This document shows positions 49,435 through 58,733 of a stretch of 64,000 nucleotides of DNA, piece by piece (position 1 is the first letter of the stretch; every line of letters begins with the position of its first letter). The position numbers were made by a program, and so were the translations under genes. The notes beneath the pieces are model-generated. The model ran no database searches. It was not told the DNA's origin and saw nothing but the letters and a program-made list of their open reading frames with translations. The DNA lies in NCBI GenBank assembly GCA_029838195.1, contig JALGVJ010000004.1, forward strand, positions 160,001-224,000, in the 5' to 3' direction. The DNA comes from Promethearchaeota archaeon (lineage in GTDB: Archaea > Asgardarchaeota > Lokiarchaeia > Sigyniarchaeales > SOKP01).

Positions 49435-50244
49435 TTATTTTGAAATTAAAAATTTGCGTTTAGATAAACGAATTCCAACATAAGAAATTGAAAAAGAAAC
49501 GAAAAAAGCAAAAGGTAAGTTAGCAATAATGATATAGGCAAATAGAGGGGTGGTAGAGAAAAAATAAAGAGAAATAATGAGAATCACTAAAAAAAACGAG
49601 CTAATAAATGTAATTTTTAAATGCCCTATTAGGAAACCTAAAATGAAGTTAGGAACGGTAAAAATTATAAGAATATTCGCAATGGCTAAAACCACTAATG
49701 CTGGCATGAACATGGTGAAAATTTCTAATTGGCTATATAATAATTGATCTAGCTGAAAAAGAGAATATAAAAATTGGGTGGTATTAAGAGAAATAAATAA
49801 TAAAAAGTATGATAAAGGGGCTACAATTAACCAAGAGAAAATTACCCTTTTTTTCATGGATGGCTGTTTTTTACCTTTTAAAGAGTTAGCAACTATTTTA
49901 TTCATTAAAACAGGATCAATTTTATTCACGTCATATTCAGGTGAATATTCGTCAATAAAATCTAATAATATCGTCTTTAAAATTTTATTAAGAAGGATAT
50001 TATTATCTTTCGAATTTGCAATCATTGCGCCCAAAAGACCTTCTCGACTCATTGAAATAATTATTAATTTTTTATTTTCACCCAAATCGAGATAATTAAT
50101 AACGCTATTTAAGGCCTCCCGAGAAAAATTTGTAATAGAGGAGAAGAATCCTATCAGTAAATTACTGTCAAATACGCTTTCTGTTAACAACTTTTCATAT
50201 AATAGAACACCATTTTCATTTAAAATATAAATGCTTTCTATCAC
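49435..50244 (-). CDS. Longin-like N-terminal domain fused to four TM helices
   Basis: MIESIYILNENGVLLYEK...DSNLLIGFFSSITNFSRE is a longin/sigma-adaptin-like start; C-terminal half hydrophobic. Confidence 0.72.
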   Translation of the reverse strand: MIESIYILNENGVLLYEKLLTESVFDSNLLIGFFSSITNFSREALNSVINYLDLGENKKLIIISMSREGLLGAMIANSKDNNILLNKILKTILLDFIDEYSPEYDVNKIDPVLMNKIVANSLKGKKQPSMKKRVIFSWLIVAPLSYFLLFISLNTTQFLYSLFQLDQLLYSQLEIFTMFMPALVVLAIANILIIFTVPNFILGFLIGHLKITFISSFFLVILIISLYFFSTTPLFAYIIIANLPFAFFVSFSISYVGIRLSKRKFLISK

Positions 50245-50280
50245 GAATCTTCACATTTTTTTGTTAGTCATGCCATGCTA

Positions 50281-52083
50281 TTAATTTTTCCCGGATGAGA
50301 TGGAATTCACATTGGTTTGTTGAACATATTCAATAAAATCATCTAAATCAGCTTGATATTTTTTAAAACTATATAAATGTTGTCCAAAAATTTTAATTAA
50401 TAGGAGGAATACATCGTGAGAATTTCGTTTAGTGTAAATTTTGTACTTTTCATTCTTCCTTTCTTCGAGGATAAGCAAAGATTCCATATTTTTCATCCTC
50501 TCAATATCCTCTTGTTTTGGATTATCCAATTCGATTAAGAGAATTTCTCCGGATTGAGGCAACTTAGACCTATAATCTTTTAGAGAACCTGTTTCCACGA
50601 TAAACTTTGAAATTATCAAGATCTTATCACATTGCGCAATAATTTCCTCAGGGCCTTGAAATATAAAAATTACATGATATTTAGCTTTTATTTTTTTAAT
50701 GAATTCGTTGAATTTATCATATTGAAGTTTATTTAAATAAAATTGTGGTATTTTAACTAAAAGGATGGTAGGAAGCTGTAATAAGACTCTACATGTTGAA
50801 AAAATTAAAAATTCCAGAGGATTTAGCTCATGCATTTTTTTATCTTTTTTATGGGTTAATCCGGAAATTTTCATTAATTCATCAATAAAATCCTTTTTCT
50901 CTTTCCATTTTCTTAATATTTTAAAAAGTCTTGCTCTTTTTTCAAACTCCTCATAAATCTCATCTTTTAGACCTAATAATCCGGCTTTTTTTAGTACCTT
51001 TTCTAATGCCTTTCTATGAATTCTTAAAGGACTTTTAACTTTAATGCCTTTTTTTAATGCTTTAGATAGAGGTAAATTTTTAATATTTTTCTTTTCCTCT
51101 GCAGAAAATATGAAAATATTATTTTTTTCTTCTGTGGTAAGTAATTGAACATGTTTTCCAAATATTTTAATGGTACCAACAAAATCCTCTTTAGTTCCTA
51201 TAAGAAAATCATGTAATTTAGGCAAAATTAAATCTATTTCTTCTTGAGTTAAATGATTCGAATCAATATAGATTCCTAGGGTCTGACTATTTCGAAGTTT
51301 AAAACTAATTTTATCTACATTCGACATGAGGGATACATTTTCAAAAATTAAATGCTGCGAATCTTTGAGAAGTGGGGGTAGTTTTAAGCGCTTTAAGATC
51401 TTTTCAATTAGTAATTCAACGAGTTCATGTACGTGCAACGGTTTATTTTCATCCCATTCTTTAATAGAAGGAATTTCTAAAAAATCTTTTAATTTGATAA
51501 TTCTTGAAAGTTTTGGAGAAAATGATATTTTAGGAACTAAAGGATACACTTCAAAATTCACGAATAAATTCAAAAAGAAATTGGGAAAATGAATAAAAAT
51601 TTCTCTATTAAAGGGATTGTTCTCAATACTATATGATTCAAAATGTTCGTCTAAAAGTTCTAATTCTTTTTCTAAAACAGATAAATGATAGCTATATTCT
51701 CTAACAATTGTTCTATTTAACCGTTTAATAATTTTTATTGGACTAATTAATCCATCTTCATCAAAATCGGGCTCTGCAGTAATTTCATTAAAATCAATTT
51801 CAGTTTCAACCGGAGTATGGATTTTTATTAAAGGAACTCCTTTTTCTAATACATCACGATTTGTGAAAAATAATACTTCTACATAGCTTTTCTTATAAAT
51901 TAAATTAAGAATTGTCATGACACCGAAGGTTCCCTCTCTATAAATCATCCAATACCGTTTTGAACTTCGCACGGCATCCAAGATTTTTGCTCTTAATAAT
52001 TTTAATTCTTGTTCCCGCTCATCTTTTTTTTTTAGATTTTCTTCTTCTATTGTTTCATTTTTTTCTTTTTCTTTAATCGTCAT
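50281..52083 (-). CDS. RWD/UBC-like domains fused to a degenerate (inactive) ABC ATPase domain
   Basis: LEKELELLDEHF...NFEVYPLVPKISF...WDENKPLHVHELVELL; ABC-like scaffold lacking Walker A, LSGGQ (LNPLE), Walker B (ILLVKIP) and H-loop (FQG); ATG 52083 behind GAGGAG. Confidence 0.7.
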   Translation of the reverse strand: MTIKEKEKNETIEEENLKKKDEREQELKLLRAKILDAVRSSKRYWMIYREGTFGVMTILNLIYKKSYVEVLFFTNRDVLEKGVPLIKIHTPVETEIDFNEITAEPDFDEDGLISPIKIIKRLNRTIVREYSYHLSVLEKELELLDEHFESYSIENNPFNREIFIHFPNFFLNLFVNFEVYPLVPKISFSPKLSRIIKLKDFLEIPSIKEWDENKPLHVHELVELLIEKILKRLKLPPLLKDSQHLIFENVSLMSNVDKISFKLRNSQTLGIYIDSNHLTQEEIDLILPKLHDFLIGTKEDFVGTIKIFGKHVQLLTTEEKNNIFIFSAEEKKNIKNLPLSKALKKGIKVKSPLRIHRKALEKVLKKAGLLGLKDEIYEEFEKRARLFKILRKWKEKKDFIDELMKISGLTHKKDKKMHELNPLEFLIFSTCRVLLQLPTILLVKIPQFYLNKLQYDKFNEFIKKIKAKYHVIFIFQGPEEIIAQCDKILIISKFIVETGSLKDYRSKLPQSGEILLIELDNPKQEDIERMKNMESLLILEERKNEKYKIYTKRNSHDVFLLLIKIFGQHLYSFKKYQADLDDFIEYVQQTNVNSISSGKN

Positions 52084-52093
52084 TTTCTTAATT

Positions 52094-55000
52094 CTACTCC
52101 TCAATTTCTATAGTTCTATATCTAAAATATTCTTCCATTCTTGATTCTGTTTGGAGAATTTTTTCTATAGAATCTTCTCCAAATTCTCTTTTAATAATTT
52201 CTTCGACCTCATTAATGGGCAGATCGGAATAAATAGAATAATCCGTTCCCGCCTTATCTTCTAAAACTTTAGAAATTCCTTCCATTTTTTCTAATTTCAT
52301 AATGACATTTTCTTGAACTTCTTTAAAAACAATTGTAATGGTTCTTCCTTTTCCTGGAAGCTGTTCTAAAAGCTCCTTAGGACTTCCGTAATCTATCAAC
52401 CCTCGATTCCTTCTAAATATGGCCACTTTATGACAAAAACGCGATTCTTCTGGATAATGAGTTATAACAATCAAAGTAGTATTAAATTGTTCATTGATCC
52501 GAGTGAGTGAAAGCCATAAATTTTCTCTCACGATGGGATCAAGACCACTCGTCGGCTCGTCCAGCCACAGAATGATTGGTTCATGAATTAAGGAAATCGC
52601 AATTGAAACACGCCGTTTCTGACCTCCTGATAAATTTTTCACGGGTTCATACATTTTATCCTCAATTTCTAATGCTCTTAAAATTCTACGGGCCCTTCGC
52701 CTCATCTCTTTTTCTGGAATCCCATATTGGTTGCCAAAATAGAGTAAATTTTGCAAAGTCGTGAAATTTTGATAAATTTTAGAAAGGTCTTGAGGACAAT
52801 ATCCATAAATGGGGCGAATTTTCTTGGCATTTTTTTTCACATCCATCCCATAAATTTGAGAAATCCCTTTAGTTTTTCTCATGCCCAATAATCCCTTGAT
52901 AAACGTACTTTTCCCAGCTCCGCTTTCTCCTAACACGCCTAAAATTTCTCCGTGTTTTAATTCCAGAGAAACTGAATCTACAATCAATTTTCGTCCAGCA
53001 TAAATACATAAATCTTCGCAGAATATTGCCGGAGAATTTTTTAAATAATCGATATTTAACTTTTCTCTAATATTTAATAACGATTTTACTCTTTCTATTA
53101 AATCAAAATACGAGAGGAAAGTTATAAAACCTAACAACCAAAAAAAAGCAATTTCAACTGAAAGAATCGATATTAATAATTGATTCCAAGGTGTAGGATC
53201 AAATGCACGATCATATTGGAAATAATCTATAATAGTGATCCCGAAAGGGCAATTTCTTAAATCTCCTCCGAAATTGGGGGCATCCCCTAATCCTCCCGTT
53301 TTTTTACTCACGCATTCTAAAAACCAATCTATTAAAGCGTTCATGTCTTCGGGTTGATACCGATAATCATACAATGCTTTAGAAGCACTATACGTGACTA
53401 GAAAATAAGAAATACTTATGCCTACATAAGTAGAAAGAGAGGGCATGATCGTAAACCCTCCATTATCTATTTGAGCTAATTTTAAAAATTCAACCGCTGA
53501 AATTTTTGATAAGGGATCTTTTTCCAGTGAAATCAATAATTCTAAACCATAATAGGTGGATATCACGTCACTATAAAATCCCATGAATAATGAAAAACCG
53601 CCATCCGCATTTTGGCAAGACTTTATCCAATGTTCTAATGAACTTATATTAATTTTTCCCAGACCACCTAATATTTTTAAAGATGAATAGGCCCAATAAC
53701 TGGTTTCTACAGTGGAAATATTTGTGTTGATTAAATCTATAATTAAATAATAATAGGAGCCAAAAAGAAATGAAATGTATTCGGTATCATTTCCTGCCCT
53801 AAAACCACCATCTGGATTTTGTAAATCAGCTAAATAATCTTGAGTGGTGGTTCGATTCGGAAGATAAATTTGTTCATGGGTAAAAAAAATTCTATACAAT
53901 TCAATAGCGCAAAATGTAGAAAATAAACTAGAATTCATTTGAGGACGAGAACCAAAACCGCCATCTTGGGGATTGTAACAATTTTCCACGAATTCCCAGG
54001 TATTATTAATGTTTATAAGTTCAGGAATTGCTGTTGAATTGTGCTGGTAAACCGAAAGTATACCTAAATAATTTGATTCAATTGTTATATGCCCAAACAA
54101 ACCATTTCTCGCTTGATGTTCATATAACCATTGATAATAATTAGAACGCACTTGTTTAATTCTTTCTTTAAACTCATCATCTAATAGAGAATATTTTTCA
54201 AATAGAGCAATTGTATTCATAGCAGCCCATCCCGATTTAAAAGTAGATTCATGTTTATCTCCCGGCCGTAAACCAAAGCCACCATCAGAATTATTACAAT
54301 TCAATACATAATTTAAAGTTTCAAATCTTTGTAAAGGCGTGAAACCGATTTCATACAGGGAAGAAACCGCATAAAACGTAGATTGTATATCCGAAGGTTC
54401 TCCCACTTGTCTGGCATATCCGCCGTCTAAATTGGCATACCTTAAAAGAGTAAAATAACTTATTATTAAACCCCTTTCTATTAAGCTATAGGTCATGTTC
54501 AATTCTAAGAAAGCTTTTATTCCATAGTAGGTGCTCTCAGGCGTTGGTAAAATAGTGGTGTTTGTATACGCGTACCCTCCTTCTCGCCATGTAGAATTAA
54601 TGAAACTTGAAAGATTGACGTTATTTAACAAGGAATGGGCAGAAAAATTTCCTGCTAATTTCACGGCACAATAAGTTGAGATGATGTCAGAATCATTCAC
54701 AATTGGATTAAGCCTAAAGCCATATCCATGGGGCTCTTGACTTTCTTTCAAATAATTGATAATTTTGTCAATTTTTTCCTCATCTATTACGGGATCAAAA
54801 AAACTGGGTTCCAATTTAGTGAGAGTTGCAACAACTTCATACGTGGAAAACATGTTGCTTAATCCATAAATATCTGAAAAGCCCCCATCATCATTTTGTT
54901 TTTCAAATAAATAATGAAAGAATAAATCGTCTACCTCGGGTTTAAGTAAGGAATTCGATTTAGGGTTTATCAAGTTAGACTGAGAAAATTCATCATCAGA

Positions 55001-55243
55001 GAAATTAATTGAATAAATGGCTCTATGCGTGGAATCTATATCAACTTCAATGAATAAACCAGAACTAGGATTTTGATGGGTTAATGCGAAGTAGAGCATG
55101 TCATCTTTAAGTTCTCTGATTTCTTCATCGTTAAAATACTGTTTATATGGTGTGTTTATGATTATCAATAGTAGTATGGGCGTCGCAAGTACCAGCGATA
55201 TGATAATAGTTGTTTTTATTCTTCGCTTCCATAAGTAATCTAT
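52094..55243 (-). CDS. TM - prenyltransferase/squalene-oxidase-repeat barrel - TM - ABC ATPase fusion protein; inferred ATA start at 55243
   Basis: Repeats QNDDGGF, CNNSDGGFG, CYNPQDGGFG, LQNPDGGF, CQNADGGF, AQIDNGGF; TM LLISILSVEIAFFWLLGFITFL; GESGAGKST, LSGGQ, LWLDEPTSGLD, ITH; upstream frame encodes WKRRIKTTIIISLVLATPILLLIII. Confidence 0.88.
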   Translation of the reverse strand: MDYLWKRRIKTTIIISLVLATPILLLIIINTPYKQYFNDEEIRELKDDMLYFALTHQNPSSGLFIEVDIDSTHRAIYSINFSDDEFSQSNLINPKSNSLLKPEVDDLFFHYLFEKQNDDGGFSDIYGLSNMFSTYEVVATLTKLEPSFFDPVIDEEKIDKIINYLKESQEPHGYGFRLNPIVNDSDIISTYCAVKLAGNFSAHSLLNNVNLSSFINSTWREGGYAYTNTTILPTPESTYYGIKAFLELNMTYSLIERGLIISYFTLLRYANLDGGYARQVGEPSDIQSTFYAVSSLYEIGFTPLQRFETLNYVLNCNNSDGGFGLRPGDKHESTFKSGWAAMNTIALFEKYSLLDDEFKERIKQVRSNYYQWLYEHQARNGLFGHITIESNYLGILSVYQHNSTAIPELININNTWEFVENCYNPQDGGFGSRPQMNSSLFSTFCAIELYRIFFTHEQIYLPNRTTTQDYLADLQNPDGGFRAGNDTEYISFLFGSYYYLIIDLINTNISTVETSYWAYSSLKILGGLGKINISSLEHWIKSCQNADGGFSLFMGFYSDVISTYYGLELLISLEKDPLSKISAVEFLKLAQIDNGGFTIMPSLSTYVGISISYFLVTYSASKALYDYRYQPEDMNALIDWFLECVSKKTGGLGDAPNFGGDLRNCPFGITIIDYFQYDRAFDPTPWNQLLISILSVEIAFFWLLGFITFLSYFDLIERVKSLLNIREKLNIDYLKNSPAIFCEDLCIYAGRKLIVDSVSLELKHGEILGVLGESGAGKSTFIKGLLGMRKTKGISQIYGMDVKKNAKKIRPIYGYCPQDLSKIYQNFTTLQNLLYFGNQYGIPEKEMRRRARRILRALEIEDKMYEPVKNLSGGQKRRVSIAISLIHEPIILWLDEPTSGLDPIVRENLWLSLTRINEQFNTTLIVITHYPEESRFCHKVAIFRRNRGLIDYGSPKELLEQLPGKGRTITIVFKEVQENVIMKLEKMEGISKVLEDKAGTDYSIYSDLPINEVEEIIKREFGEDSIEKILQTESRMEEYFRYRTIEIEE

Positions 55244-56256
55244 TTAGCACCACCCCCCTTAACTTCCATTTGATACTCCCATTCTCTTTTTTCTTTTAAT
55301 TCTTCTTCTTGTATTCTTAATTGAAAATATCTTCGAAAAGTTGCCCTATCTTTATTAAAAGAATTAATTTTTACATTATTTTTAATTAAATATTCAATCA
55401 AATTTGGTAATTCTTGTTCAAAATTTTCAATAAATACCTCAATGACATCGTTTCCTACTCGTATTATTTTTTCTACCGGAAAGGTTTTAAAAACATTCAT
55501 GACATCTTGGTTTAATCTTTCAATCGTGAATCTAGCCAACATGCCTTTACTCGGAAGAGTTGAGATTAATATCTGAGGATTTTCAAATTCAAGGATTTTC
55601 CCTTGCCGTAAGATGGCAGCTTTATCGCAGATTAAAGAGCATTCCATGTCATGTGAGATTATAAACATTGTAGTGCCTAATGTTTGATTTAATTTCTTGA
55701 GATAACTTAAGATTTCATATCGTTTACTAGCATCGACTCCTGTTGTAGGCTCATCAAGAAATAGAACCTCTGGTTGATGAATGAGCCCAATTGCCATAGA
55801 CACTCGTTTCTTCTCACCACCACTCATGCGCTCTAATGGTTTTTTCCACGTATCTTCCGGAATATCTAAAATGTGAAAGAGCTGTTCCGCAACTTCTTCC
55901 GATTTTTTTGTTTTCAAACCGTATGCAGAAGCAAAGGTATCAATATTAGCTTTAGGTTTCAAATCATAGTAAAGATTTAACTCTTCGAGCTGAGGAACAT
56001 ACCCTATGGAAGCTAAAATTTCTGCATGATTGCTCTTTTTAGCAGGTGACAACCCATTTACAAGAATCTTTCCAGTCCAATATTTTTTACTCAATTGGCA
56101 TGTAATCGCTCGAATTATGGTAGTTTTTCCTGCACCAGAAATCCCAAAAAAACCGATAATCTCACCTTTTTTAACAGAAAATGAAACGTCGTGAATGACT
56201 TGTTTTTTGCCGAACTTTACGTTTAGATTCTCTACGATAATTACTAGTTCTCTCAA
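55240..56256 (-). CDS. ABC transporter ATP-binding protein (ABC-2/multidrug-type)
   Basis: GISGAGKTT, YVPQ, MSGGEKKR, LFLDEPTTGVD, ISHD. Confidence 0.94.
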   Translation of the reverse strand: MRELVIIVENLNVKFGKKQVIHDVSFSVKKGEIIGFFGISGAGKTTIIRAITCQLSKKYWTGKILVNGLSPAKKSNHAEILASIGYVPQLEELNLYYDLKPKANIDTFASAYGLKTKKSEEVAEQLFHILDIPEDTWKKPLERMSGGEKKRVSMAIGLIHQPEVLFLDEPTTGVDASKRYEILSYLKKLNQTLGTTMFIISHDMECSLICDKAAILRQGKILEFENPQILISTLPSKGMLARFTIERLNQDVMNVFKTFPVEKIIRVGNDVIEVFIENFEQELPNLIEYLIKNNVKINSFNKDRATFRRYFQLRIQEEELKEKREWEYQMEVKGGGAK

Positions 56257-56341
56257 TTTTATGTTCCTTCCACGTGTTTTGTTCAGATTTTTAATTTTTT
56301 AATGGGATTCATGATGGTTTTTTAAAAATTTCAAGAATTGT

Positions 56342-57571
56342 TTAAACCTCATATTTTCTTAAATAAAAAACGATGAAGCTAAGCACGAAAAATAAACAAC
56401 TTATGCCTAATAACCAATAAAAATCAAAACCAAAAACCGACTTTCCTTTCGTGACTATTCCCGTTATAATGGGTTTTCCATGGGATAAAGGCAACATGTA
56501 TGCTGCAACTTGTAAATAGACGGGCATGGATTCGATTGGAACGAAAATCCCGCTTAAAATCACGATTAAGATGAAAAAAGCAAAAAATAATTGATTAGCT
56601 TCCGTTTTGGTATTACTCGTACAACTTATGAATATGCCCATGCTTAAGGCGGCAAAACCAATCATGTATAATGCAAGAAATAAATCAAATAATGAGCCAA
56701 CCAAATACAAGCCATTCAAGAGGCTTGAAGTTAAAAGTATGATAACTTGGGCCAATAAGATAAGGGAATACGTGATGTATTTTGATAATAAGATCTCATG
56801 TCTTTTAAGCGGCGTGAGAAGTAATCGTGCGATGGGTTTTTCTCGAACGACGACTAAAATCGTCAAGACCATTGAAATACCAAAAATCATCATTGGTAAT
56901 AACAATGTCATGGCATTATTAAATTGAAAATTATAATTGGGAGGAATGGAAAATTCTTCATAACCAACAATCTTGAATTGCGATGTTAATTTATTGTCAT
57001 GAACAAATATATTAAGAGAATCTTGAACTGCATTCAAGAATTCCTGTAATTTTTGAATGTCAGAGGAATCTACAATGCATTGAATGAACGCCGGTTGACC
57101 CCAGTTGATCATTTCAGAAAAATCCATGGGAAGGACGATGATTATACTGATTTTATTCGAAAGCAACTGATTTCTTGCTTTTTCCATTGCATAAACTTCT
57201 TCAGAAGCATTATAAAATTGCTCTAATGAAAGTTTTTGAGATTTATTCACTGCATTCACGTAAGGAATGGTATAATTATCAATTTTATGCTCAGTATAGT
57301 CATTAGGATTTATGAATGTATTTGAATCGTAAGATATAACTATTGTTTTAATAGGAATGGGATTCTGACTAGAACTAATGGATAAATAGGCAAAAAGCGT
57401 GATGATCAAGGGAGGAAGTACTAAGGCTATAAATAAATTATAAGGGTCACTGCGTAATAATCGAAATTCTTTTTTAACCATTTTTAAAATTCTGAAAAGG
57501 CTGGCTTTTATATTTCGAAAGAATCGCCTTGAATTCCCCTTCTTTCTCAGTCTTAAAATGCTAGAAGCCAC
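56342..57571 (-). CDS. ABC-2 type permease with extracellular domain
   Basis: MVKKEFRLLRSD, VVREKPIARLLLTPLKRHEILLSK, LSGIFVPIESMP, LPLSHG; start at GTG 57571 behind GGAGG. Confidence 0.9.
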   Translation of the reverse strand: MASSILRLRKKGNSRRFFRNIKASLFRILKMVKKEFRLLRSDPYNLFIALVLPPLIITLFAYLSISSSQNPIPIKTIVISYDSNTFINPNDYTEHKIDNYTIPYVNAVNKSQKLSLEQFYNASEEVYAMEKARNQLLSNKISIIIVLPMDFSEMINWGQPAFIQCIVDSSDIQKLQEFLNAVQDSLNIFVHDNKLTSQFKIVGYEEFSIPPNYNFQFNNAMTLLLPMMIFGISMVLTILVVVREKPIARLLLTPLKRHEILLSKYITYSLILLAQVIILLTSSLLNGLYLVGSLFDLFLALYMIGFAALSMGIFISCTSNTKTEANQLFFAFFILIVILSGIFVPIESMPVYLQVAAYMLPLSHGKPIITGIVTKGKSVFGFDFYWLLGISCLFFVLSFIVFYLRKYEV

Positions 57572-57572
57572 T

Positions 57573-58733
57573 TCAAACCTCCACTTTTTTAATTTTAAAT
57601 ACAAGATAAGCCAAGAATAGAAAAACTAAACTAATCAAGTTTAATGGGATAAAATCTTCAAGAGAAATGGATAATCCCTTAAGTGTAATGCCGGTTAACA
57701 GGGAGATCGCATGACCTAATGGTAGACTATTGATTAATACTAGCATTACGGGAGACAAGGAGGATTCATCGACAAAAGCTCCCGAGAAGATTAGAATTGT
57801 AATGAAAAACATGATATAAAGTTGATTTGCAGTTTGTTCTGAAGGACTTATGGCTGATATGAATAATCCAATGCACGTGCCACAAAATCCGATGGATACC
57901 AACACCAGATATAGCTCGAGTAAAGAACCTAAAGAATATAACCCAAATAACGCAATAGTAACAAAAATTTCTGCTGATTGTAAGATCATGATCAAGGTAT
58001 TTGCTAATAACTTGCTTAAAATGATTTCGATTTTTGCTGTCGGAGTTAATAACATTCGAGGAAGCGGCCCTTCGGAAACAATGGAAAGCGAGGTTAGATT
58101 CATTGTCGTTCCTAGAACGATAAGAGGAAGCATGATGGAAACGGCATAATTTAAAACTTGTGTTTCCCAAAAGGGAACATCAAATTCGAGGGAAGGCGCC
58201 ATGACGGTCATGTTTTCTGTCATTCCCACTTCAATCCGGAATAAAGCAATGGGCTCTTGCAAGGATACTTCAATGGCGGCTACTGCGTTTAAATCTGAAC
58301 CATCGACATGATAAATGATAACAGGATCTACTTTCTTAATAACGGATTCAGAAAAGTTTTCAGGTAATACGATAAACACATCAATGGTTTCTTGCCTCAA
58401 TAATTCAATATATCTATTAAAAGTATACTCATATCCAGAATAATTATGAGCAATATACGATTCATAGAGACCGAAAGAACTCGTATTATCCCGCATTATG
58501 GAAATAAAAACATCATCATACTGATGCGCATCCTTCTCCTTTCTAAAACCCTTCCAACAATGCATTTCATCCTTACTTAAAACCGCGGCATTAAAATATT
58601 TCGTCGGGCCTCCCCCTGAAGTGAGACCAAATACGATAATTAAAATTAAGGGGATAAGAAACAAAAGGATGAGAGTCCTTCTATCAGATCGAATACGACC
58701 AAATTCTTTAAAAATCAACCCGCGAATATTCAA
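57573..58733 (-). CDS. ABC-2 type permease with extracellular domain
   Basis: KEFGRIRSDRR, VDGSD, RMLLTPTAKIEIILSK, GLFISA, FSGAF, LPLGHA. Confidence 0.9.
   Translation of the reverse strand: MNIRGLIFKEFGRIRSDRRTLILLFLIPLILIIVFGLTSGGGPTKYFNAAVLSKDEMHCWKGFRKEKDAHQYDDVFISIMRDNTSSFGLYESYIAHNYSGYEYTFNRYIELLRQETIDVFIVLPENFSESVIKKVDPVIIYHVDGSDLNAVAAIEVSLQEPIALFRIEVGMTENMTVMAPSLEFDVPFWETQVLNYAVSIMLPLIVLGTTMNLTSLSIVSEGPLPRMLLTPTAKIEIILSKLLANTLIMILQSAEIFVTIALFGLYSLGSLLELYLVLVSIGFCGTCIGLFISAISPSEQTANQLYIMFFITILIFSGAFVDESSLSPVMLVLINSLPLGHAISLLTGITLKGLSISLEDFIPLNLISLVFLFLAYLVFKIKKVEV

Follow-up and report, generated by a model that had tools for sequence, protein, structure and literature searches.

A pseudo-ATPase gene with a degenerate nucleotide-binding domain

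The DNA analysed here, which we call the window, is a 64,000-nucleotide stretch of a Promethearchaeota archaeon genome from the class Lokiarchaeia (positions 160,001 to 224,000 of the forward strand of contig JALGVJ010000004.1, assembly GCA_029838195.1). A gene on its minus strand, present in one copy in that genome, encodes a 600-residue protein, P0001, in which an N-terminal tandem RWD/UBC-like module precedes an ATP-binding cassette (ABC) nucleotide-binding domain (NBD) that has lost its catalytic motifs. A preliminary description of the same DNA, made from the letters alone, had proposed such a pseudo-ATPase on the strength of several short motifs, and all of the strings it quoted are found in the minus-strand translation of 50281-52083: LEKELELLDEHF at residues 137-148, YPLVP at 180-184, IPSIKEWDENKPLHVHELVELL at 203-224, ISFKL..QTLGI at 258-271, GTIKIFGK at 303-310, RVLLQLPTILL at 432-442 and AQCDKILII at 483-491. 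The gene and its parts are as follows.

50281..52083 (-): whole gene, tandem-RWD-like/pseudo-ABC-NBD protein of 600 residues (P0001); open reading frame (ORF), Shine-Dalgarno-like run and more than 120 homologues
52021..52083 (-): residues 1-21, poorly conserved tail rich in lysine and glutamate, the beginning of long helix alpha1; identity 0.29, predicted local distance difference test score (pLDDT) 57-58
51745..52020 (-): residues 22-113, unit 1; alpha1, three strands, a short helix and a fourth strand; RWD-like by structure only
51751..51771 (-): residues 105-111, invariant P-D-F-D-x-D-G loop at the unit 1/unit 2 junction; from column counts
51376..51744 (-): residues 114-236, unit 2; long alpha1 (115-147), four strands and C-terminal helices; UBC/RWD-like, no catalytic Cys or HPN
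51532..51546 (-): residues 180-184, YPLVP between unit-2 strands 3 and 4, at the position of the E2 YPxxPP/RWD YPxxxP turn
50569..51366 (-): residues 240-505, degenerate ABC NBD with a variable helical insert at about 331-415; profile, Foldseek and alignment with the active paralogues
51235..51288 (-): residues 266-283, lost Walker A/P-loop position; only G270 conserved
50803..50826 (-): residues 420-427, lost LSGGQ signature position, LNPLEFLI; alignment and column counts
50743..50766 (-): residues 440-447, lost Walker B position, ILLVKIPQ (family IIMFSIP); P446 invariant, Asp-Glu gone
50284..50568 (-): residues 506-600, C-terminal alpha/beta domain (LPxxG ... EERxxEKYK ... DYLEF), common to both active ATPases of the operon

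The TAA stop occupies 50281-50283 (-). A longer frame of 607 open codons begins at a TTG at 52104 (50281..52104 (-)), and we regard the ATG at 52083 as the likely start. A Shine-Dalgarno-like GAGGAG precedes this ATG and lies within the last codons of the upstream gene (GAG GAG TAG; 52084-52105 (-)), which encodes a toroid-ATPase fusion. Only 10 nt separate the TAG of that gene from the ATG, an arrangement suggesting that the two genes may be translationally coupled. A Pfam scan of P0001 recognised no family. A search for sequencing runs listed four metagenome DNA runs and none of RNA. The AlphaFold2 model of the full-length protein is compact and confident, with a pLDDT of 87.7 and a predicted TM-score (pTM) of 0.82.

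The C-terminal 360 residues are a genuine homologue of ABC NBDs followed by a C-terminal domain. Searched against the sequences in the Protein Data Bank (PDB), the family profile matched MacB (E 7.9e-9), an Mn ABC ATPase (3.6e-8) and LolD (7e-7), as well as FtsE and CFTR NBD2. Foldseek with the full-length model returned TM_1403 (E 1.7e-12), NosF and ABCA1/4/7 (to 1e-10) at a probability of 1.00, with alignments spanning ~350 columns to TM_1403 and NosF and about 380-450 to ABCA. These proteins have ABC-2/type-V NBDs bearing a C-terminal domain. P0001 shares the NBD fold and the C-terminal alpha/beta domain with TM_1403, NosF of NosDFY, the NBD-R of ABCA1/4/7 and the two active ATPases of its own operon (ATPase1 and ATPase2), and is collinear with the latter two from the first NBD strand to the C-terminus. 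It differs from all of them in the loss of Walker A, Q-loop, LSGGQ and the Walker B Asp-Glu, in the helical insert and in the additional 240-residue N-terminal module. Pfam ABC_tran (PF00005) is below cut-off in P0001 and matches weakly in 10 of 31 homologues (best E 3e-4).

For the motif comparison, P0001 was aligned with ATPase1 and ATPase2, and residues were counted by column in an alignment of 87 homologues, to which the counts below refer; Pfam checks used a smaller set of 31 members. GxxGxGK[ST], which reads GxSGAGK[ST] in the active operon ATPases, occurs in 0/87 homologues and in none of the distant orthologues, the aligned stretch being variable, and the Q-loop Gln is missing throughout the family. 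The signature, LSGGQ or MSGGE in the active enzymes, has become L-[TSN]-x-L-[ED] (LNPLE in P0001). In the Walker B motif (hhhhDEP) the Asp is replaced by S, K or L and the Glu by I, L or V, and the H-loop position holds Gln in P0001 and His in 74/87 homologues. The signature-helix arginine, R432, is invariant in the 31 members and nearly so in the 87. Because these motifs are lost even in the most distant orthologues, some of which retain remnants (LSEGEKRRV, LAAGEKRRV, FEPE), inactivation is old and progressive. The earlier claim that the ABC-like half kept its scaffold without its catalytic motifs therefore stands for the family as a whole.

Judged by its motifs, the pseudo-ATPase is predicted to be unable to bind or hydrolyse ATP in the canonical way. 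Heterodimeric ABC exporters such as TM287/288, TAP1/2 and CFTR (NBD1) keep a non-hydrolysing NBD for a structural or regulatory role, and P0001 resembles them in retaining one. The NBDs of these degenerate-site exporters keep Walker A, however, and one degenerate composite site that continues to bind ATP. P0001 has lost the P-loop and the signature alike, so that a canonical dimer containing it could form neither of the two composite sites.

We built an NBD tree from the pseudo-NBDs, ATPase1, ATPase2 and the 25 other ABC ATPases of the window's genome. The pseudo-NBDs formed one clade (Shimodaira-Hasegawa-like approximate likelihood ratio test, SH-aLRT, 99), with branches about three times as long as those of the active paralogues. 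A split with SH-aLRT 96 placed them together with ATPase2 and apart from ATPase1 and the 25 other ATPases, making the ATPase2 NBD their nearest relative. The simplest reading of this tree would be that the pseudo-NBD arose by duplication of the ATPase2 NBD.

The N-terminal tandem RWD/UBC-like module

Modelled alone (220 residues, 87-row alignment), the N-terminal region reached a pLDDT of 88.2, and in the models each of its two units has a long helix, a four-stranded sheet and further helices. When this model was compared with the PDB by Foldseek, CENP-O, FANCL, BRE/BABAM2, Knl1 and Ctf19/Mcm21 came out on top, followed by ubiquitin-conjugating enzymes (E2), at weak E-values of 0.02-0.1. In a wide structure search nearly all of the 50 best matches belonged to one superfold (RWD/UEV/E2). 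A comparison with the ESM Atlas placed BRE first among the named clusters, at 0.75, which counts as no more than a lead. The alignments to FANCL and BRE/BABAM2 cover both units, with unit 1 in the place of the first lobe of the FANCL URD and of BRE. On these predicted structures, the N-terminal region is two consecutive UBC/RWD-like lobes in one chain. The preliminary description had anticipated this fold and had named FANCL and BRE/BABAM2 as tandem parallels; both were recovered, and the neighbours in two independent structure searches were almost exclusively RWD, UEV and E2 proteins rather than members of a non-UBC fold.

The two units are unequal. In unit 2 the YPLVP turn lies between strands E170-176 and E185-188 of the full-length model, with Y180 nearly invariant, P181 invariant and P184 invariant or nearly so. 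Unit 1 has no YPxxP turn, only a conserved G-V-P84, and carries an extra helix between strands 3 and 4. It had been described before as a similar but degenerate copy. The likeness holds for the RWD-like structure, and the turn is indeed absent, but no sequence similarity links the units (hhalign probability <1%), so that an internal duplication cannot be shown by sequence; nor is unit 1 decaying, since no other segment of the protein is as well conserved. Residues 1-240 contain no conserved Cys (the first invariant one, C485, is in the NBD), so neither unit can be a conjugating enzyme. The HPN motif is absent, its equivalent segment reading W-D-E-N-K-P-L-H-V.

At the junction of the units, the P-D-F-D-x-D-G loop is conserved almost without exception (P105 in 87/87, D108 in 86/87, D110 in 87/87 and G111 in 84/87 homologues), and it is a candidate for binding metal or forming an interface. 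The loop is similar to the calcium-binding DxDxDG type, with Lys instead of Glu at position 12, and alignments to EF-hands are weak.

Sequence searches with the N-terminal region gave a more restricted picture. Against PDB sequences its profile produced only weak matches to EF-hand loops and Rpb8 (E 0.14 or worse), and P0001 has no Pfam BRE or FANCL_d1 match. A profile of the N-terminal region alone, built from 54 loci and searched against 1.84 billion representative proteins, retrieved only 61 proteins at E <=0.001. Those outside the family were Asgard proteins (hmmsearch E 2.6e-12 to 8.1e-4) with two to four matches to the unit-2 part in each chain; Pfam recognises UQ_con (best 46 bits), RWD (best 41 bits), UBC_like and, weakly, BRE and FANCL_d1 in them. 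The same proteins bear RING-like zinc fingers and are named ubiquitin-protein ligases by some sources. A paralogue locus of this kind exists in the window's own genome (contig 4, ~14.7-16.2 kb): the 322-residue protein of L083:1390-2355 begins with a UQ_con-like domain (26.9 bits), followed by a second domain that matches unit 2 (hhalign 93.9%, E 1.6e-7), and the next ORF, L083:2516-2950, joins an RWD match to a cysteine-rich RING/PHD-like finger. Three of the relatives elsewhere, P0148, P0149 and P0152, combine three to five UBC-like repeats with a finger, so that these Asgard proteins are laid out like FANCL or RNF25.

Profile-profile comparison aligned unit 2 with the UQ_con-recognised Asgard domains over 99 columns, helix to helix (hhalign 81.8%, E 1.1e-5), and these domains in turn with RWD-recognised regions (94.2%). 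Compared directly with the RWD set, unit 2 gave no significant match, and unit 1 matched neither the Asgard UQ_con-like nor the RWD set. Unit 2 is thus linked to UBC/RWD domains indirectly, through the Asgard UQ_con-recognised domains. It shares a [FY]PxxP ... W-[DN]-x-x-x-P-x-H-[IV] pattern with the multi-UBC-like proteins. These proteins differ from P0001 in forming arrays of three to five UBC-like domains, with UQ_con and RWD units that Pfam recognises, in their zinc finger, and in having neither an ABC domain nor a transporter operon.

It is conceivable that the N-terminal region, and above all unit 1, reached its alpha/beta sandwich by convergence and shares no ancestry with RWD/UBC domains, the likeness being that of a common arrangement. 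We consider this improbable. Convergence would sit poorly with a set of 50 best structural matches that is nearly all one superfold rather than a mixture, with an independent Foldseek ranking headed by tandem-RWD proteins, with the profile-level homology of unit 2 to UQ_con-recognised domains, and with the position of unit 1 at the first lobe of the FANCL URD and BRE.

P0001 has the two consecutive lobes per chain of the FANCL URD and BRE/BABAM2. Unlike them, it shows no sequence similarity to either, orients its lobes differently (root-mean-square deviation 7-9 Å), has no RING or MPN-complex context and carries the module fused to a pseudo-NBD in an archaeal transporter operon. Compared with single RWD or UEV domains (the RWD domains of Listerin/Ltn1, GCN2 and Knl1, the UEV domain of Vps23/Tsg101 and the UEV-like domain of VPS37A), P0001 is missed by the Pfam RWD and UEV models, and its unit 1 departs from them in its extra helix and in the missing YPxxxP turn.

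Conservation and operon context

A word-seeded search of 5.8 billion proteins found more than 120 full-length relatives of 520-650 residues and 35-85% identity, and all named ones are from metagenome-assembled genomes (MAGs) of Promethearchaeota (Asgard). A scan of GTDB species genomes gave 73 loci in distinct species genomes, where the N-terminal high-scoring segment pairs that were checked were free of stops. Among 400 Asgard-phylum genomes profiled, matches were confined to seven families of one class, with 0/241 genomes positive elsewhere. Several complete genomes have the multi-UBC-like paralogues and no pseudo-ATPase orthologue.

The alignment of 87 sequences has 19 invariant columns and many nearly invariant ones. 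Mean pairwise identity is highest in unit 1 (0.70), against 0.51 in unit 2, 0.49 in the C-terminal domain and 0.39-0.52 in the NBD segments. The gene is under purifying selection, intact, and functional rather than decaying, whereas the random decay of a pseudogene had been envisaged as a possible outcome of comparing homologues. A decaying copy of an ABC ATPase would explain the loss of every catalytic motif, but it is refuted by intact frames of ~520-650 residues in more than 70 species, by the invariant residues in 87 sequences, by the fixed operon position and by the pTM of 0.82, and we give it practically no credence.

One subgroup (P0108 and P0110-P0121; loci L058, L065, L067 and L068) has a ~75-residue insertion directly after the unit-2 YPxxP turn (alignment columns 226-306) and a ~45-residue deletion in the helical insert of the pseudo-NBD, so both regions tolerate large changes. 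A search for longer fused forms of the pseudo-ATPase found none. P0008 (896 residues) has a 300-residue N-terminal extension unrelated to the downstream gene, and probably reflects a wrongly called start rather than a Rosetta-stone fusion. On a contig shared with locus L049 (G222 contig 87), a 1505-residue ORF at L099:3934-8451 (-) joins toroid/ATPase2 sequence (to about residue 900) in frame with the pseudo-ATPase (from about its residue 53). It was seen in one MAG only, and may be a genuine deletion-fusion or may have arisen in assembly.

The pseudo-ATPase gene is the fifth of a co-directional set of six genes spanning 49435-58733 (-). The other five are listed in order of transcription.

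57573..58733 (-): ABC-2 permease 2; ORF, present in 45 related loci and in distant loci
56342..57604 (-): ABC-2 permease 1; Pfam ABC2_membrane_3 and synteny
55240..56256 (-): ATPase1, soluble active ABC ATPase; Pfam and synteny
52094..55168 (-): ATPase2, 1024-residue fusion of a prenyltransferase-like toroid, a transmembrane (TM) segment and an active ABC ATPase; Pfam, synteny and tree
49435..50244 (-): 269-residue protein combining a soluble N-terminal domain with about four TM helices; ORF, directly downstream of the pseudo-ATPase in most loci

By tblastn, permease 1, ATPase1, the toroid-ATPase2, the pseudo-ATPase and the 4-TM protein occur together in about 70 loci, and permease 2 in 45. 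The order of those five genes is unchanged in essentially every locus that is long enough. Distant orthologues in seven loci, belonging to other families of that class, likewise lie next to ATPase1, the toroid fusion or both; the four of these loci that are long enough contain the permeases as well. In 3/7 loci the distant orthologue is divergently oriented. The operon core is thus kept in distant orders of the class, with its genes rearranged. A linkage that outlasts such rearrangement points to a functional tie between the pseudo-ATPase and the exporter genes.

The 269-residue 4-TM protein has no Pfam match. Invariant residues in its N-terminal domain (G12, G32-F33, S36, F40 and E43) make it a candidate longin/roadblock-like domain, judged by eye. 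In one locus from a distant taxonomic order, the 4-TM protein at L090:11300-12184 was recognised by eye, not by BLAST. Following the operon of that distant relative, L090:12470-13657 (+) encodes a 395-residue protein that has a vWA-like N-terminus along with several CxxC RING/PHD-like fingers.

A proposed accessory role in an ABC-2 exporter

We think it probable that P0001 is a functional, non-catalytic paralogue of the operon's ABC-2-type ATPases, most likely derived from ATPase2, and that it serves as an accessory subunit of the six-gene exporter with its RWD-like module as an interaction platform. Under this model P0001 would attach to the transporter through its pseudo-NBD and C-terminal domain, which would imitate an NBD, and the highly conserved tandem module would bind another cytoplasmic partner and so couple the pump to it. 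Such a platform would be analogous to the tandem RWD/UEV scaffolds of FANCL, BRE/BABAM2 and the kinetochore proteins. The data establish the fold assignments, the motif loss, the conservation and the operon linkage; the docking, the role as adaptor, regulator or brake, and the identity of the partner are inferred, with strict operon conservation as the ground for a regulatory subunit.

Several points weigh against this proposal. With two permeases and two active ATPases the operon encodes a complete transporter already, and it is unclear where a third NBD-like protein would dock. As for the module, Pfam RWD, UQ_con and UEV/UBC-clan models matched 0/31 members at E up to 10, and the P0001 locus is not among the RWD or UQ_con matches of its genome. 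The grouping of the pseudo-NBD with ATPase2 joins two long branches and, both stems being long, could be due to attraction. Finally, strong orthologues (rows with E <1e-50) occur in about 78 of the 135 genomes of the window's own family, and an orthologue is missing from many complete genomes there; the gene is dispensable for the lineage.

P0001 might instead be a core subunit, its dead NBD forming a head-to-tail heterodimer with an active ATPase at the permeases to give an ATPase-incompetent or single-turnover assembly that acts as a brake or resting-state cap. Retention of the whole NBD scaffold, of R432 and of the C-terminal domain of the active ATPases would fit such a subunit, as would the descent of the pseudo-NBD from the same ATPase lineage and the constant co-encoding of three NBD-type proteins. 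However, by the established ABC mechanism a partner without Walker A and signature would disable both composite ATP sites of the canonical dimer, so that a brake as the main role is possible but less likely. In addition, the transporter is complete without P0001, whose NBD part has changed at about three times the rate of the active paralogues, with the strongest constraint falling in unit 1. On balance we regard a core subunit as unlikely, if somewhat less so than the convergence discussed above.

A more specific version of the adaptor model would have the tandem UBC-like module bind ubiquitin, an E2 or a RING E3 ligase, so that it reads the Asgard ubiquitin system or recruits it and couples exporter activity or turnover to ubiquitin-like signalling. 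Genes for ubiquitin-like proteins (contigs 8, 26 and 87) and for E2s do exist in the window's genome, ubiquitin and E2 sharing a neighbourhood on contig 26, and the only sequence relatives of unit 2 are the Asgard multi-UBC-like proteins with RING-like zinc fingers. Non-covalent ubiquitin binding by UEV and FANCL ELF domains is described in two reports (PMC4543658; PMC9192718). On the other hand, no ubiquitin-system gene lies in or beside the operon in any locus examined, and many eukaryotic RWD domains (kinetochore, Mediator, GCN2) are unrelated to ubiquitin. A ubiquitin link is attractive, yet it seems doubtful to us, and we prefer the accessory-subunit reading in its general form.

Whatever its partner, P0001 is a new domain architecture assembled from known kinds of parts. 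Our survey of the literature on Asgard archaea with RWD, UEV, FANCL or ABC transporters found no description of it. Elsewhere, to our knowledge, tandem scaffolds of the RWD/UBC-like kind belong to eukaryotic complexes, for example the kinetochore, the Fanconi core complex, BRCA1-A/BRISC and Mediator. Tromer et al. (PMC6601020) mention only "an RWD-like domain" for Asgard archaea and ascribe RWD diversification to a radiation during eukaryogenesis. A two-lobe UBC/RWD-like module in Lokiarchaeia, together with the related multi-lobe RING proteins, would move the double-RWD arrangement back into archaea. It is a speculative and rather remote prospect that tandem RWD/UBC-like platforms already existed in Asgard archaea, with one of them hard-wired to a transporter through a dead ATPase. 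Joined by the longin-like membrane protein, that one would be a forerunner, in a prokaryote, of the way eukaryotes regulate membrane transport, with a possible link to ubiquitin. For the exporter itself, a third NBD-like subunit without ATP-handling motifs in a fixed operon is an unusual design, and would indicate a mode of regulation or assembly undescribed for ABC-2 exporters.

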